DNA of 5,101 nucleotides from a virus (lineage: Duplodnaviria > Heunggongvirae > Uroviricota > Caudoviricetes), in IMG/VR virus record IMGVR_UViG_2609459833_000010, positions 1 to 5,101 of that record; one strand, given 5' to 3'. Each line of letters starts with the position of its first letter. Positions within the stretch are counted from its first letter, which is position 1. Positions 291 to 5,101 of this stretch are shown here, piece after piece. The notes beneath the pieces were generated by a model. The model did no database searches. It was not told the DNA's origin and saw only the letters and a list, made by a program, of their open reading frames with translations. The translations under genes were made by a program, and so were the position numbers.

Positions 291-523
291 ACAGAATCCT
301 GAACAGGCTCTCCCCATTGTTTGTTCTTAAGTTCGATCTCCTCCTGGCAACTTGCACAAGTCCGACAACCCTGAACAGCCAGGCGTCTTCGCTCATCTAT
401 CGGATCGCCACACTCACAACAATGAGTTGCGGATACAGTCTGGTAGTTCAGACGACGCATTTTTATTGCTGTATTGCGCTGTAATTCTTCGATTTCTGAT
501 GCTGAATCAATGATGTCTGCCAT
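287..523 (-). CDS. TraR/DksA-family C4 zinc-finger protein (phage TraR-like, of the lambda Orf73 class)
   Basis: 78-aa ORF with an ATG start. It contains C-x2-C-x17-C-x2-C (CCEC...GDPIDERRRLAVQGCRT...CASC), the zinc-finger signature of TraR/DksA proteins, and its size matches F-plasmid TraR (73 aa). Confidence 0.8.
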   Translation of the reverse strand: MADIIDSASEIEELQRNTAIKMRRLNYQTVSATHCCECGDPIDERRRLAVQGCRTCASCQEEIELKNKQWGEPVQDSV

Positions 524-576
524 CTTTCATTAATCCCTGAATTGTTGGTTAATACGCTTGAGGGTAAATGCGAATA

Positions 577-600
577 ATAAAAAAGGAGCCTGTAGCTCCC
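577..600 (-). terminator. Weak candidate intrinsic terminator for the minus strand
   Basis: On the minus strand, a GGAGC / 5-nt loop / GCTCC hairpin (586-600) is followed by TTTTTTATT (577-585), about 20 nt after the stop of the 622-903 ORF. The stem is only 5 bp. Confidence 0.3.
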
Positions 601-621
601 TGATGATTTTGCTTTTCATGT

Positions 622-903
622 TCATCGTTCCTTAAAGACGCCGTTCAACATGCCGATCGCCAGGCTTAAATGAGTCGGTGTGAATCCCATCAGCGTTACC
701 GTTTCGCGGTGCTTCTTTAGTACGCTACGGCAAATGTCATCGACGTTTTTATCCGGAAACTGCTGTCTGGCTTTTTTGATTTCAGAATTAGCCTGACGGG
801 CAATGCTGCGAAGGGCGTTTTCTTGCTGAGGAGTCACTGAACAAGCCCCATGCCGGCAAGCATAAGCACACAGAATATGAAGCCCGCTGCCAGAAAAATG
901 CAT
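622..903 (-). CDS. Hypothetical small phage protein; the real start may be the internal GTG at 835-837, giving 71 aa
   Basis: 93-aa ORF from an ATG. The C-terminal 70 residues look protein-like (SEIKKARQQFPDKNVDDICRSVLKKHRETVTLMGF...), while the N-terminal 22 are Cys/His/Gly-rich and overlap another ORF. A GTG at 835-837 overlaps the stop of the 834-917 ORF. Confidence 0.45.
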   Translation of the reverse strand: MHFSGSGLHILCAYACRHGACSVTPQQENALRSIARQANSEIKKARQQFPDKNVDDICRSVLKKHRETVTLMGFTPTHLSLAIGMLNGVFKER

Positions 904-917
904 TCAGTGGTTGTCAT
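834..917 (-). CDS. Putative 27-aa hydrophobic single-helix peptide (MTTTECIFLAAGFIFCVLMLAGMGLVQ)
   Basis: Not in the supplied ORF track because it is short. Its ATG (915-917) overlaps the TGA stop of the upstream 914-1105 ORF as ATGA, suggesting translational coupling, and a purine-rich GAGAGAG lies 6 nt upstream. The product is almost entirely a transmembrane-like segment. Confidence 0.3.
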   Translation of the reverse strand: MTTTECIFLAAGFIFCVLMLAGMGLVQ

Positions 918-1105
918 ACCTGGTCTCTCTCATCTGCTTCTGCTTTCGCCACCATCATTTCCAGCTTTTGTGAAAGGGATGTGGCTAACGTATGAAATTC
1001 TTCGTCTGTTTCTACTGGTATTGGCACAAACCTGACTCTAATTTGAGCAAGGCTATGTGCCATCTCAATACTCGTTCTTAACTCAACAGGAGATGCTTTG
1101 TGCAT
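914..1105 (-). CDS. Small lambda early-left protein (orf60a/orf63 class), function unknown
   Basis: 63-aa ORF. It sits in the same position relative to exo as the small non-essential ORFs in phage lambda and overlaps the next ORF by 28 nt, as those do. Confidence 0.6.
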   Translation of the reverse strand: MHKASPVELRTSIEMAHSLAQIRVRFVPIPVETDEEFHTLATSLSQKLEMMVAKAEADERDQV

Positions 1106-1266
1106 ACCGCCTCCCGTTTATTATTTATCTTCTCAGCCAGCCGCTGTGCTTTCAGTGGATTTCTGATAACAGAAAGGCCGGGAAATACCCAGCCTCGCTT
1201 TGTAACGGAGTAGACGAAAATGATCGCGCCTACCCGGATATTATCGTGAGGATGCGTCATCGCCAT
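1078..1266 (-). CDS. Small phage protein immediately downstream of exo, function unknown
   Basis: 62-aa ORF ([62 protein letters not shown]). Its start overlaps the exo stop by 10 nt, so it belongs to the same leftward operon. Confidence 0.5.
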
Positions 1267-1937
1267 TGCTCCCCAAATACAAAACCAATTTCAGCCAGTG
1301 CCTCGTCCATTTTTTCGATGAACTCCGGCACCATCTCGTCAAAACTCGCCATGTACTTTTCATTCCGCTCAATCACGACATAATGCAGGCCTTCACGCTT
1401 CATGCGCGGGTCATAGTTGGCAAAGTACCAGGCATCTTTTCGCGTCACCCACATGCTGTACTGCACCTGGGCCATGTAAGCCGATTTTATTGCCTCGAAA
1501 CCACCGAGCCGGAATTTCATGAAATCCCGGGAGGTAAACGGGCATTTCAGTTCAAGGCCGTTGCCGTCACTGCATAAACCATCGGGAGAGCAGGCGGTGC
1601 GCATACTTTCGTCGCGATAGATGATCGGGGATTCAGTAACATTCACGCCGGAAGTGAATTCAAACAGGGTTCTGGCGTCGTTCTCGTACTGTTTTCCCCA
1701 GGCCAGCGCCTTAGCATTAACTTCCGGAGCCACACCGGTGCAAACCTCAGCCAGCAGGGTGTGGAAGTAGGACATTTTCATGTCAGGCCACTTCTTTCCT
1801 GAGCGGGGCTTTGCTATCACGTTGTGAACTTCTGAAGCGGTGATGACGCCGAGCCGTAATTTGTGCCATGCATCATCCCCCTGTTCGACAGCTCTCACGT
1901 CGATCCCGGTACGCTGCAGGATAATGTCCGGTGTCAT
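1257..1937 (-). CDS. exo: Lambda exonuclease (Red alpha), 5'-3' dsDNA exonuclease
   Basis: 226 aa, the length of lambda Exo. The sequence ([43 protein letters not shown]...) is recognised as essentially lambda Exo. Its start overlaps the bet stop by 4 nt, as in lambda. Confidence 0.96.
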
Positions 1938-2719
1938 GCTGCCTCCTTCTGCTCAGTGGCTTTCTGTTTCAGGAATCCAAGAGCTTTCACTGCTTCGGCC
2001 TGTGTCAGTTCTGACGATGCGCGAATGTCGCGGCGAAATATCTGGGAACAGAGCGGCAATAAGTCGTCATCCCATGTTTTATCCAGGGCGATCAGCAGAG
2101 TGTTAATCTCCTGCATGGTTTCATCGTTAACCGGAGTGATGTCGCGTTCCGGCTGACGTTCTGCAGTGTTAGCAGTATTTTCGACAATGCGCTCGGCTTC
2201 ATCCTTGTCATAGATACCAGCAAATCCGAAGGCCAGACGGGCACACTGAATCATGGCTTTATGCCGTAACATCCGTTTGGGATGCGACTGCCACGGTCCG
2301 GTGATTTCTCTGCCTTCGCGGGTTTTGAATGGTTCGCGGCGGCATTCATCCATCCACTCGGTAACGCAGATCGGATGATTACGGTCCTTGCGGTAAATCC
2401 GGCATGTACAGGATTCATTGTCCTGCTCAAAGTCCATGCCATCAAACTGCTGGTTTTCATTGATGATGCGGGACCAGCCATCAACGCCCACCACCGGAAC
2501 GATGCCGTTCTGCTTATCAGGGAAGGCGTAAATTTCTTTCGTCCACGGATTAAGGCCGTACTGGTTGGCGACGATCAACAATGCGATGAACTGCGCATCG
2601 CTGGCATCACCTTTAAATGCCGTCTGGCGAAGAGTGGTGATCAGTTCCTGTGGGTCGACAGAATCCATGCCGACACGTTCAGCCAGCTTCCCAGCCAGCG
2701 TTGCGAGTGCTGTACTCAT
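1934..2719 (-). CDS. bet: Lambda Beta (Red beta) single-strand annealing protein
   Basis: 261 aa, the length of lambda Bet. The sequence ([66 protein letters not shown]...) is recognised as essentially lambda Bet. A GAGG Shine-Dalgarno lies about 10 nt upstream. Confidence 0.96.
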
Positions 2720-2724
2720 CCGTT

Positions 2725-3021
2725 TTATACCTCTGAATCAATATCAACCTGATGGTGAGCAATGGTTTCAACCATGTACCGGATGTGTTCTGCCATGCGC
2801 TCCTGAAACTCAACATCGTCATCAAATGCACGGGTAATGGCTTTTTTGCTGGCCCCGTGGCGTTGCAAATGATCGATGCAGAGTGATTCAAACAGGTGCT
2901 GTGGAAGACCTTTTTCCATGTCGTCTGCCAGTTCTGCCTCTTTCTCTTCACGGGCAATCTGCTGGTAGTGACGCGCCCAGCTCTGAGCCTCAAGACGATC
3001 CTGAATGTAATAAGCGTTCAT
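2725..3021 (-). CDS. gam: Host-nuclease (RecBCD) inhibitor Gam, short form
   Basis: 98-aa ORF ([60 protein letters not shown]...[10 protein letters not shown]) recognised as lambda GamS. An AGGAG Shine-Dalgarno lies 7 nt upstream of the ATG. An in-frame stop at 3076-3078 with no start codon in between rules out the longer lambda-type form here. Confidence 0.94.
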
Positions 3022-3096
3022 GGCTGAACTCCTGAAAATGGCTGTGAAAATATCGCCCGCGAAATGCCAGGCTGATTAGGAAAACAGGAAAGGGGA

Positions 3097-3507
3097 TTAG
3101 TGATTCAGGCCGTTGCCTCGTCCGTCGAGAAAAACTTCCACGAGCAAATCACGGGTATAAGTGCGCTCGATGCCGCGATGCAGATATAGCCGTCCGCGTA
3201 AATTAGCTGATGCTGTCCAGGTACCATCTTTGTGTTTGACCAGCATTCCTGGCATGACCGCACCGCGATTAACGGTCTGCGTTCCGTAATGTTGATGAAC
3301 CATAAAAACTCCTGCCCGTAAGCTGGGCTGCTGAACATATAAAGACTTCTGCGCGTATTCAGGCGGTGGATGGCCGCCGGTTGTCATAACTAAGCCGCCT
3401 CGTTGAAGCGACTGAGGTATGAAATGTTGAGTTAATTTCAGCTGGTCACACCGACGTTCACGCGTCCGCTTCACCCCTCGCACTTCCCGGAGCCTGCTGA
3501 AATTCAA
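3097..3507 (-). CDS. Hypothetical Arg-rich protein or gene remnant; no ATG at the head of the ORF
   Basis: 136-codon open frame, and the plus strand here is closed in all frames. The frame opens right after a stop at 3517-3519 and its first start-like codon is TTG. The first ATG is codon 41, preceded by GAGG about 10 nt upstream, which would give 96 aa. No family recognised. Confidence 0.3.
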   Translation of the reverse strand: MNFSRLREVRGVKRTRERRCDQLKLTQHFIPQSLQRGGLVMTTGGHPPPEYAQKSLYVQQPSLRAGVFMVHQHYGTQTVNRGAVMPGMLVKHKDGTWTASANLRGRLYLHRGIERTYTRDLLVEVFLDGRGNGLNH

Positions 3508-3588
3508 GCTACGGATCTAAGCGGTCATCGCAACGGTGAATCAGGTGGTTGCCGTATCGTTGTGTTGTTGCGATATGATGATAATAGC

Positions 3589-3625
3589 TATTGCTATTGG
3601 TGATATCAATACTTATTGCTATTGG
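3589..3625. repeat. Two perfect copies of a 12-bp direct repeat, TATTGCTATTGG, 25 bp apart in AT-rich intergenic DNA
   Basis: Read directly: 3589-3600 and 3614-3625. Each copy is itself a GCTATT-type tandem, and both lie in the AT-rich spacer between the terminator at 3747-3774 and the ORF at 3097-3507. Confidence 0.5.
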
Positions 3626-3746
3626 CTGATGTGTTTTGATATTAAATGTTTGATAGCAAAAAGAATTAATTTTGTGACTTGCATCGCATAGCGATAACTG
3701 AAGCAGGGGCATGGTGGTTTTTTGAACGGTGTGTGATGAGGGGAGG

Positions 3747-3774
3747 CAAAAGAAAACCCGGCACGACGGCCGGG
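3747..3774 (-). terminator. Intrinsic (rho-independent) terminator downstream of the membrane-protein gene
   Basis: On the minus strand, a GC-rich hairpin CCCGGC-cgtcgt-GCCGGG (3757-3774) is followed by TTTTCTTTTG (3747-3756), starting 9 nt after the TGA stop at 3783-3785. Confidence 0.55.
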
Positions 3775-3782
3775 GAGGGGGG

Positions 3783-4289
3783 TCATTTTAATCTATCAAG
3801 GAGTGACTCTCTTTCCTTCTTCTCTGATTCTCTTCGGTTTAATAACGCTTTAAACTCTTGAAGCTCAACCATTATTTTATGAACGAATACACTGGTATAG
3901 AGAGAAATAAAGAGTAATCCACCTGAAATTTTTAAGACCCTGAAGAGTAGGGCTTGATCATTTGTGCTTGCTATTAACCCCAAGATTACAAACAAAGTTG
4001 AAAATACATAGAAAGCTAATAATAAAACCAATTTCAGTCTCTTGGATTTGACTATTGGCACTAATCGCCTAACCTCACTAGGGGTTAAAGACGAGTGGTC
4101 ATTGGCCTCATTTGCCTTAAAAATGGCTTGTATACAATATGATAATGGCAATTGCATGAGTCCAACCACAGCCCACGGAGCTGTTAGGACAACACCCGGT
4201 GTAATATAGCCCAATGCTGACTTGAACAAAAAGTAACCAGCAACATAGAAGACCAACATACCAATAAGGTGGATGATGTTCGATTTCAT
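3783..4289 (-). CDS. Predicted integral membrane protein (about 4 transmembrane helices, charged C-terminal tail), function unknown
   Basis: 168-aa ORF with an ATG start and a canonical AGGAGG Shine-Dalgarno 5 nt upstream. Hydrophobic stretches sit at about residues 5-22, 30-57, 85-107 and 112-136, followed by a Lys/Glu/Arg-rich tail (LQEFKALLNRRESEKKERESLLDRLK). The gene is AT-rich and starts 21 nt after the upstream gene's stop. Confidence 0.75.
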   Translation of the reverse strand: MKSNIIHLIGMLVFYVAGYFLFKSALGYITPGVVLTAPWAVVGLMQLPLSYCIQAIFKANEANDHSSLTPSEVRRLVPIVKSKRLKLVLLLAFYVFSTLFVILGLIASTNDQALLFRVLKISGGLLFISLYTSVFVHKIMVELQEFKALLNRRESEKKERESLLDRLK

Positions 4290-4310
4290 TATCGCCCTCC
4301 TTTTGGTAGG

Positions 4311-4781
4311 TTATTTTGCAACCAATTCTCCGGCATCAAGTTTTGAGAACAGCCACTTATGCATTTTTAAGAATAAATCATTTTCATCAATAATGCCATT
4401 GTTATGTTCAACGCTAATTTTTCCGGATAATTTTATCTCTTTTCCCGTTATTTCCCCACCGCCTTGAAGTTTGATGCTAATATCATCCTCATCTAGATGT
4501 CGTAGTGAGGTAGCAATACTGTCTATAACAGCTTGACCGCTATCATTTGTTTTTCTGAAGTATGTAATCTCGAGGCTTACTTGTAAATTGGCCTCATCTA
4601 ATGAATCTTTAATGTTTATATCATTTGCCCAGTTATCGCCAAAAAATGCTTTTAGTAGCGCACCTCCTTTCCCTATTGGGCGGTATTTTATTGTCTTCAC
4701 CGAACCATTTGAAAAGGAGGGTGTTTGGTTCTCTGAATTTTTAACTTCTGAAGTAATGGGTAATCTGATCTTACCCAGCAA
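4311..4781 (-). CDS. Hypothetical soluble protein, first gene of the two-gene cassette; 5' end apparently truncated by the IS3 insertion
   Basis: 156-codon frame ending in TAA at 4311-4313. The head of the frame (4766-4781) is IS3 inverted-repeat sequence and the first start-like codon is a TTG inside IS3. The native portion (4765 and below) has no ATG until near the C-terminus, and its only GTG (codon 28) has no Shine-Dalgarno. No family recognised. Confidence 0.55.
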   Translation of the reverse strand: MLGKIRLPITSEVKNSENQTPSFSNGSVKTIKYRPIGKGGALLKAFFGDNWANDINIKDSLDEANLQVSLEITYFRKTNDSGQAVIDSIATSLRHLDEDDISIKLQGGGEITGKEIKLSGKISVEHNNGIIDENDLFLKMHKWLFSKLDAGELVAK

Positions 4782-5101
4782 TAGTGGACACGCGGCTAAG
4801 TGAGTAAACTCTCAGTCAGAGGTGACTCACATGACAAAAACAGTATCAACCAGTAAAAAACCCCGTAAACAGCATTCGCCTGAATTTCGCAGTGAAGCCC
4901 TGAAGCTTGCTGAACGCATCGGTGTTACTGCCGCAGCCCGTGAACTCAGCCTGTATGAATCACAACTCTACAACTGGCGCAGTAAACAGCAAAATCAGCA
5001 GACGTCTTCTGAACGTGAACTGGAGATGTCTACCGAGATTGCACGTCTCAAACGCCAGCTGGCAGAACGGGATGAAGAGCTGGCTATCCTCCAAAAGGCC
5101 G
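4766..5101 (+). mobile_element. IS3 (IS3 family), left end and start of orfA; continues beyond the window
   Basis: The left inverted repeat begins at 4766 (TGATCTTACCCAGCAATAGTGGACACGCGGCTAAGTGAG...), followed by the orfA start at 4831. Recognised as the E. coli IS3 left end. Confidence 0.93.
4831..5101 (+). CDS. insE: IS3 OrfA (transposase N-terminal helix-turn-helix / leucine-zipper protein), 3' end outside the window
   Basis: Translation from the ATG at 4831 (MTKTVSTSKKPRKQHSPEFRSEALKLAERIGVTAAARELSLYESQLYNWRSKQQNQQTSSERELEMSTEIARLKRQLAERDEELAILQKA) is recognised as IS3 OrfA (InsE). It is absent from the ORF track only because no stop falls inside the window. Confidence 0.93.
   Translation, partial: MTKTVSTSKKPRKQHSPEFRSEALKLAERIGVTAAARELSLYESQLYNWRSKQQNQQTSSERELEMSTEIARLKRQLAERDEELAILQKA

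Follow-up and report, generated by a model that had tools for sequence, protein, structure and literature searches.

We examined a 5,101-nucleotide stretch of DNA from a member of the Caudoviricetes (IMG/VR record IMGVR_UViG_2609459833_000010), hereafter the window, which encodes the lambda-type Red recombination genes exo, bet and gam. On the minus strand these are part of a longer series that begins with the 3' part of a RexA-like gene and continues through a RexB-like gene, a terminator, a predicted left operator and promoter (OL/pL), a leader of ~270 nucleotides and a kilR gene to gam, bet and exo. Beyond exo follow orf60a, orf63, an orf61-like gene and a traR-like gene, and an insertion sequence (IS) stands at either end (Table 1). 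An exact-protein look-up revealed that the window is the exact reverse complement of an entire 5101-bp draft contig (JNRV01000145.1, assembly GCA_000704865.1). Its phage portion (311-4765) is collinear with phage Perceval at 97.7% identity, and also with 43 complete Escherichia coli genomes in which 80% or more of the window is represented, with identities of 96.6-98.9% in the best-matching ones. Very probably, then, the window is a segment of the early-left (pL) operon of a common lambdoid prophage, mosaic in its make-up and of the Perceval/4A7 type (genus Bievrevirus). With the same high confidence we regard its exo-bet-gam operon as the normal, intact one of a common E. coli lambda-like prophage, provided with a kil gene and a repressor-controlled promoter of its own.

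The Red genes and the mosaic boundary upstream of gam

Comparison with the lambda genome shows 96.8% DNA identity, with two gap openings, between window positions 328-3103 and lambda 30418-33193. Neither a frameshift nor a premature stop interrupts exo, bet or gam, and the three proteins are 98-99% identical to their lambda counterparts. The genes form one leftward operon in the order gam-bet-exo, with the bet/exo overlap of 4 nucleotides (ATGA, 1934-1937) and the gam-bet gap of 5 nucleotides both as in lambda. Each protein is recovered by the models of its family. Exo belongs with the (PD-(D/E)XK)/lambda-exonuclease family (Pfam YqaJ, 5e-30). Bet belongs with the single-strand annealing proteins (Pfam RecT, 2e-33) and scores 169.5 bits against the NCBIfam equivalog TIGR01913 bet_lambda, for which the cutoff is 76.95. 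Gam belongs with the RecBCD inhibitors (Pfam Gam, 3e-65, 216.8 bits), its residues 1-98 aligning with positions 1-98 of the model. It is thus the 98-residue short form, which corresponds to the full Pfam model, as against the 138-residue open reading frame annotated in NC_001416. The longer form is impossible here because the lambda homology stops at 3103 and the reading frame is closed by a TAA some 20 codons ahead of the gam ATG.

A first-pass annotation, made from the letters of the sequence, had described Red genes of lambda length with near-lambda sequence and native overlaps. This description holds for the coordinates, the identities and the 4-nucleotide overlap alike, and the alignment to lambda that had been proposed as a check uncovered nothing that disrupts the three genes. 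Complete, close to lambda throughout and matched by the family models, they look functional, as had been claimed. The module itself is common: the exo-bet-gam segment is present at a coverage of at least 80% in 3137 of 5426 complete E. coli genomes (58%), at up to seven places per genome. A lambda-type Red module that occurs in over half of the complete E. coli genomes is an ordinary feature, and finding one more matters little. The interpretation that had been attached to it is, for the most part, not supported, as set out below.

The homology with lambda ends at window position 3103, which corresponds to lambda 33193, the end of lambda kil, and this point is a mosaic breakpoint. The first-pass annotation had listed kil among the genes that the region lacks. 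However, the 68-residue product of the gene next upstream of gam is a KilR-family protein. It matches PHROG 294 ("Kil protein for bacterial septation inhibition", 1e-37), shares 36% identity with KilR of the K-12 Rac prophage in a BLASTP comparison (E 9e-13) and has a precomputed match to Pfam PF27398 KilR, which places it by sequence among the prophage FtsZ inhibitors. Its score of 63 bits against NCBIfam PRK11354 falls below the cutoff of 92, so that it is a member of the family that stands outside the Rac subfamily. A comparison with lambda Kil revealed no similarity, and the protein is 100% identical in Perceval, 4A7 and T309.Ta3. Judged by these matches, kilR takes the place of lambda kil, by a mosaic swap and not by a loss.

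The absence of the other lambda genes may be read in the same way. The 1744 bp between gam and IS3 contain no kil, cIII, ral or N of the lambda type. An N antiterminator with nutL and a cIII gene were likewise not found, no open reading frame in 3304-3782 matching any Pfam family. This part of the earlier description stands. Its explanation by decay does not, as Perceval, 4A7, Turner and the 43 complete genomes share the layout. Neither N nor cIII is annotated in Perceval, 4A7 or Turner, and mosaic lambdoid phages without N have been described before (PMC12315714). We consider it highly likely that lambda kil, cIII, ral and N are missing because modules were exchanged at the boundary between gam and kil, and not because of decay.

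A candidate for an N-like protein upstream of kilR was also considered and rejected. This is a 136-codon open reading frame that extends kilR in frame from a TTG at 3507 and encodes an arginine-rich stretch, RLREVRGVKRTRERR. It was ruled out by the strong AGGAG site at the start of the 68-residue form, by the want of any Pfam match, by a 1-nucleotide deletion in Turner that breaks the extension and by substitutions that are free of third-position bias.

Table 1. Features of the window, in order of position
Feature	Position	Strand	Description and basis
IS1414 (IS256 family), right end	1-310	plus	3' part of transposase gene, stop codon 274-276; terminal repeat ends at 310
TraR/DksA-like zinc-finger gene	287-523	minus	Pfam zf-dskA_traR 5e-09
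orf61-like gene	622-903	minus	93 aa; PHROG 303; 91% identical to lambda orf61 over 46 aa; annotation in Perceval
orf63 homolog (DUF1382)	914-1105	minus	Pfam DUF1382 9e-29; 92% identical to lambda orf63
orf60a homolog (DUF1317)	1078-1260	minus	60 aa; Pfam DUF1317 1e-37; 95% identical to lambda orf60a; start overlaps exo stop by 4 nt
exo (Red alpha)	1257-1937	minus	226 aa, intact; 223/226 identical to lambda Exo; YqaJ domain
bet (Red beta)	1934-2719	minus	261 aa, intact; 258/261 identical to lambda Bet; RecT
gam	2725-3021	minus	98 aa, short form, intact; 96/98 identical to lambda Gam residues 41-138
kilR-type cell-division inhibitor gene	3097-3303	minus	68 aa; strong AGGAG ribosome-binding site; directly upstream of gam
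Leader	3304-3574	minus	~270 nt, predicted start site to kilR; alignment of five phages
OL/pL (predicted)	3575-3668	minus	Promoter scan, repeats, comparative co-variation
Intrinsic terminator	3747-3774	minus	6 G-C pairs, then TTTTCTTTT; terminator scan; ends the cI-proximal cassette
168-aa membrane protein, RexB-like partner	3783-4289	minus	Three clear and one weaker hydrophobic segment; G+C 35-40%
RexA-like gene, 3' 151 codons of 340 aa	4311-4765	minus	Cut by IS3 after codon 189
IS3, left end	4766-5101	plus	Terminal repeat TGATCTTACC; orfA ATG at 4831; Pfam HTH_Tnp_1; contig ends inside element

The insertion sequences and the extent of the prophage

Both IS junctions are clearly defined. The element at the left is 100% identical to copies annotated as "IS256-like element IS1414" and encodes a Pfam Transposase_mut domain. 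The contig ends inside it, and its junction with the phage DNA (310/311) was defined against the sibling contig L004, which is free of this element. Judged against Perceval and L004, its insertion replaced only the last codon of the traR-like gene, the predicted product of which was thereby extended from 72 to 78 residues. The element at the right is 99.4% identical to the IS3 annotated in T309.Ta3 and is transcribed away from the Red genes; its target site is empty in the sibling contig L005. The location of the region between an IS256-family element and IS3, as first described, is therefore correct insofar as the junctions at 310 and 4766 are real, but it does not make the region a remnant. 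The window is a whole contig from a short-read assembly, and short-read assemblies break at repeats: it stops a few hundred bases into each of two multi-copy IS elements, just as assemblers do. Hence the IS1414 and IS3 ends are assembly break-points, which are expected in a whole draft contig and are no evidence of a decayed remnant. "IS-flanked" applies to the junctions and not to the size of the phage segment, and an IS-flanked remnant may not be deduced from them.

The alternative, which the first-pass annotation had favoured, is that the module is what remains of a decayed prophage from which the ISs deleted the DNA on both sides while the recombination genes were selectively kept. The presence of an IS element at each end of the phage segment would fit such a history, and the comparison with sibling contigs bears on it directly. 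Contigs with only one of the two elements are 99.9% identical to the window. L005 and L049 share the IS1414 junction, lack IS3 and differ by one mismatch in 4581 nucleotides, and this 16-kb contig continues through an intact 340-codon RexA-like gene into cI, ydaS/ydaT, O, P and nin. Conversely, L004 has the same IS3 junction without IS1414 and runs through DUF4222 to an integrase and into host genes. Thus, in contigs that share the IS1414 junction no less than 16 kb of prophage is preserved, with cI, O, P and nin among its genes. The open reading frame created by the IS1414 fusion was found on 19 contigs, nine of which are 10-20 kb long. As L005, with its single mismatch in 4581 nucleotides, has no IS3 at this site, the insertion of IS3 is very recent. 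In T309.Ta3 another IS3 lies in the same RexA-like gene, 154 bp away (L002 12577), as a simple insertion with both halves of the gene present. Furthermore, the segment that is retained in the window is the whole pL operon together with a cassette, and not Red alone. It includes an intact kilR behind an apparently intact pL, a combination which, by analogy with KilR of Rac, would be harmful without the cognate repressor and which argues that this repressor is still present. A selective retention of Red is not supported, and for the closest relatives it is contradicted.

Several points nevertheless weigh against our reading of the window as part of an ordinary prophage. The only contig that reads through IS1414, the 2.2-kb metagenomic L050 (1-2166), leaves the element not into phage xis/int but into the DNA on the 3' side of ireA, and no target duplication accompanies the junction. 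It may reflect a genuine rearrangement in which the left arm was lost through the IS, and it is compatible with a deletion of this kind. However, the same IS1414-ireA junction is found on plasmid NZ_CP060062.1 (L054 4873-5545). L050 may thus be a recombinant between IS1414 copies or an assembly chimera, and given the plasmid junction a chimera is equally possible. Neither IS junction was found in any complete genome, and hence neither was seen there within a full prophage. The window itself covers this genome only as far as the interior of IS1414 and IS3. Finally, the promoter and operators described below are predictions from sequence and comparative co-variation only, and the N-independence of the operon is a deduction, neither an N gene nor strong terminators having been found. 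Weighing the two sides, we consider it unlikely that the window comes from a decayed remnant, and we retain the reading in which it is a portion of a larger prophage.

At 99.9% identity, three of the four possible IS combinations were encountered: IS1414 only (L005), IS3 only (L004, metagenomic) and both (the window and L010). These combinations imply either recombination between prophage copies or assembly from mixed strains. It was also observed that near-identical early-left regions are joined to different integrases and host sites (L004 5206-6414 versus L001 4200-5342): one integrase has 402 residues and lies beside the ydiY/pfkB/yniA-yniB region, and the other has 380 residues and lies at icd, in Perceval and T309.Ta3. 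Such differing integrases next to near-identical early-left regions are a further sign of modular exchange.

The predicted promoter and operators of the Red operon

The best sigma-70 match in the region, with 10 of 12 consensus positions, extends from 3609 to 3581 and consists of TTGATA (3609-3604), a spacer of 17 nucleotides and TATTAT (3586-3581). The predicted start site lies near 3574, which places pL about 550 bp upstream of gam. Both hexamers are contained in two tandem 25-nucleotide operator-like repeats (3576-3600 and 3601-3625), of which an inverted partial copy is present at about 3653-3668. A motif in these repeats, CAATASCAATA, occurs in exact form only at OL (twice) and in the intergenic region between cI and ydaS, in L005, Perceval and 4A7 alike. 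T309.Ta3 and Turner encode a repressor that has the same C-terminal domain but a different N-terminal DNA-binding domain, and in these phages the motif is absent from both places. An alignment of five phages revealed that the ~95 bp at 3575-3668 occur in two haplotypes, which track the type of the helix-turn-helix domain of the repressor, while the sequences on either side are almost the same. In both immunity types the -35 and -10 hexamers occupy the same aligned position. In the second type, the variable patch contains AAAACAACTATAGTTTTAA and the right operator (OR) contains AAAACAACCATAGTTTTAA, a palindrome common to the two sites at 18 of 19 nucleotides.

Thus, the comparison recovers operator-like sequences that are common to OL and OR, overlap the promoter hexamers and co-vary with the specificity of the repressor. 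The terminator, the location of the motif, its co-variation, the slot occupied by the cassette and the expression of the Perceval lysogen all agree, and we therefore place a predicted repressor-controlled OL/pL inside the window at ~3575-3668. The first-pass annotation had called the promoter that drives Red unclear and had allowed that N and pL might lie just outside the window, in the normal lambda arrangement. For the former there is now a candidate, and the latter does not hold in its literal form, with pL predicted inside the window and N absent. Accordingly, the Red operon of the Perceval/4A7-type lineage appears to have a short control region, which has here been mapped by comparison to 3575-3668 of the window.

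The position of this region matters for the effect of IS3. If the Red promoter adjoined cI on the far side of IS3, as lambda pL precedes N, the insertion would be polar and Red would be silenced. In lambda the first gene transcribed from pL is indeed close to the immunity region, and in L005 the gap between cI and the 340-codon gene is A+T-rich and promoter-like. However, an intrinsic terminator directly follows the 168-codon gene of the cassette (3774-3757 on the Red strand). At 3774 the window ceases to be homologous to 4A7, Turner and the PhiR phages, and this position is thus the boundary with respect to phages that have a different cassette or none. The immunity-specific patch with its OR-type motifs lies downstream of this terminator. 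In Turner cI abuts the patch with no cassette in between, and 4A7 has the same patch next to a different cassette, which argues that pL is not upstream of the cassette. Moreover, strain LF82 harbours Perceval as an active prophage that forms plaques (PMC9928086), and in the LF82 lysogen cI is expressed 11-fold and the membrane protein of the cassette 81-fold above background, with the Red genes not among the expressed genes (PMC9928086). As the membrane protein is highly expressed in the lysogen and Red is not listed, the cassette and Red are best taken as separate transcription units. A promoter beyond IS3 is therefore very improbable. With the predicted pL inside the window, IS3 lies upstream of both promoter and terminator, within the RexA-like gene, and Red is not separated from its promoter.

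From this arrangement a simple mode of control may be proposed. In the lysogen, an S24-type CI would bind the two tandem repeats over the -35 and -10 hexamers and keep kilR and the Red genes silent. Upon SOS induction CI would be cleaved, and pL could then fire without an N antiterminator; no strong terminator was found across the 2.3 kb from pL to exo. Gam would block RecBCD, Exo would resect 5' ends and Bet would anneal single strands, as in lambda. The leader between pL and kilR is nearly invariant among the five phages of two immunity types and contains a 12-nucleotide inverted repeat (3434-3445 / 3493-3504). Its predicted fold is no better than that of shuffled sequences (z = -0.66), nothing in the window matched Rfam, and a comparison with the kilS small-RNA region of Rac was negative. 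There is a lesser chance that this leader carries a cis-acting control element that replaces N and nut.

The idea that the Red genes are in frame but functionally dead through amino acid substitutions is the least credible of those considered. Relative to lambda there are three changes in Exo (N168D, D192N, I202M), three in Bet (Y184N, A255T, V259E) and two in Gam, but those in Exo spare R28, L78, D119, E129 and K131, as read from the translation (residues whose roles, catalytic for D119, E129 and K131, we take to be those of published lambda Exo structures), those in Bet fall beyond the N-terminal domain that RecT and bet_lambda recognise, an identical Bet protein is encoded by 19 contigs from several assemblies and samples, and variants of the module with 99.2% identity are present in complete E. 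coli genomes.

The RexAB-like cassette and comparison with known systems

The cassette that separates cI from the terminator consists of the RexA-like gene and its downstream membrane-protein gene. The 340-residue protein has a RexA-like fold, appropriate to the soluble component of such a system. It has 129 homologs across the Gammaproteobacteria, all of them unnamed and none with a Pfam domain. The family is always followed by a membrane protein of ~170 residues, these small partners aligning with each other at 21-32% identity. The pair was found in E. coli, in a Klebsiella prophage (beside hicAB), in a Pseudomonas prophage (beside an S24 repressor) and at the end of a P4-like element of Aeromonas. 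In direct comparisons with RexA and RexB no sequence homology was detected (BLASTP E 0.79 and 2.5; hhalign probability 0.2), and searches of the cassette against PADLOC, Pfam, NCBIfam and PDB sequences gave no match. Evidence of a similar nature recently led to the assignment of a Pseudomonas putida prophage pair to the RexAB type, and that pair proved to act in defence (PMC12894663). When species-representative genomes were scanned for a family shared with its RexApp, P. putida was not among the genomes returned.

The content of the slot that separates cI from pL (window 3775-4765) is interchangeable among these phages. It is occupied by the RexAB-like pair in Perceval and in the window and by a 353-residue protein with an ASCH-domain protein in 4A7 (L012 8469-9885), and it is empty in Turner (L013 ~8467-8587), the homology resuming at 3774 every time. 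In L005 the gap between cI and the 340-codon gene (7290-7330) contains a hairpin with a perfect 12-bp stem (ATAGCTACCGAT...ATCGGTAGCTAT) followed by a T-rich run. This hairpin behind cI suggests that the cassette may have a promoter of its own and is not simply co-transcribed with cI. From the comparison of phages and the expression in LF82, the cassette is taken as a separate unit that is expressed in the lysogen, as lambda rexAB is.

The RexA-like gene is also interrupted repeatedly. Two independent IS3 insertions in the same orientation were observed in it (window 4766 and T309.Ta3). In the E. coli cluster of the protein (P0001, members P0121-P0134) there are C-terminal fragments that begin at seven or more distinct points. 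A protein search returned no cluster of N-terminal fragments from the far side of IS3, the cluster members listed being all C-terminal. The recurrent interruption could reflect either selection against a costly gene or a preference of ISs for A+T-rich DNA. We tentatively propose, at somewhat less than even odds, that the pair is an exclusion system of the Rex kind, unannotated but widespread in prophages and satellites of the Gammaproteobacteria, located in the slot of lambda rexAB and repeatedly knocked out in E. coli lysogens, the latter part because of the two independent IS3 sites and the seven or more truncation points among the database fragments. If this were true, the IS3 of the window would have disabled a costly defence gene rather than trimmed a prophage. 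Interchangeable cassettes occupy the space between cI and pL, one of them a remote RexAB-like pair that is missed by the current catalogues of defence systems. In the window itself, this Rex-like cassette disrupted by IS3 is the only element that is even mildly novel.

Among known systems, lambda Red itself has the same three genes in the same order, with the same overlaps and spacing, and the aligned DNA also includes orf61, orf63 and orf60a. Upstream of gam the two diverge: the window is without lambda kil, cIII, ea10, ral, sieB, N and nutL and has only kilR and the leader between pL and gam, and the repressor, the operators and the Cro/CII analogues (of the YdaS/YdaT type) are not those of lambda. 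The cassette, in turn, has no detectable sequence similarity to lambda RexA/RexB, and its RexA-like gene is disrupted in the window.

The closest likeness is to Perceval, which has the same RexA-like/membrane-protein cassette, the same operator motifs and an identical KilR, the CI proteins of L005 and Perceval being 97.8% identical. Phages of this type have the gene order cI (S24), 340-codon gene, 168-codon gene, kil, gam, bet, exo, orf60a, orf63, orf61-like gene, traR-like gene, DUF4222, xis and int, and both N and cIII are missing. Unlike Perceval and 4A7, the window has a traR-like gene that ends in IS1414 and a RexA-like gene interrupted by IS3, and it differs from 4A7 also in the cassette that occupies the same slot.

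A more distant parallel is provided by the Rac prophage of K-12 (recET, kilR, racR, ydaS, ydaT), in which, too, the recombination genes are preceded by a gene for a KilR-family inhibitor, the rightward genes belong to the YdaS/YdaT type and N is missing from the early-left operon. In contrast to Rac, the phage described here has Exo and Bet with Gam in place of RecE and RecT, a KilR that is only 36% identical, a leader without homology to the kilS region and a repressor of the S24 CI type rather than RacR.

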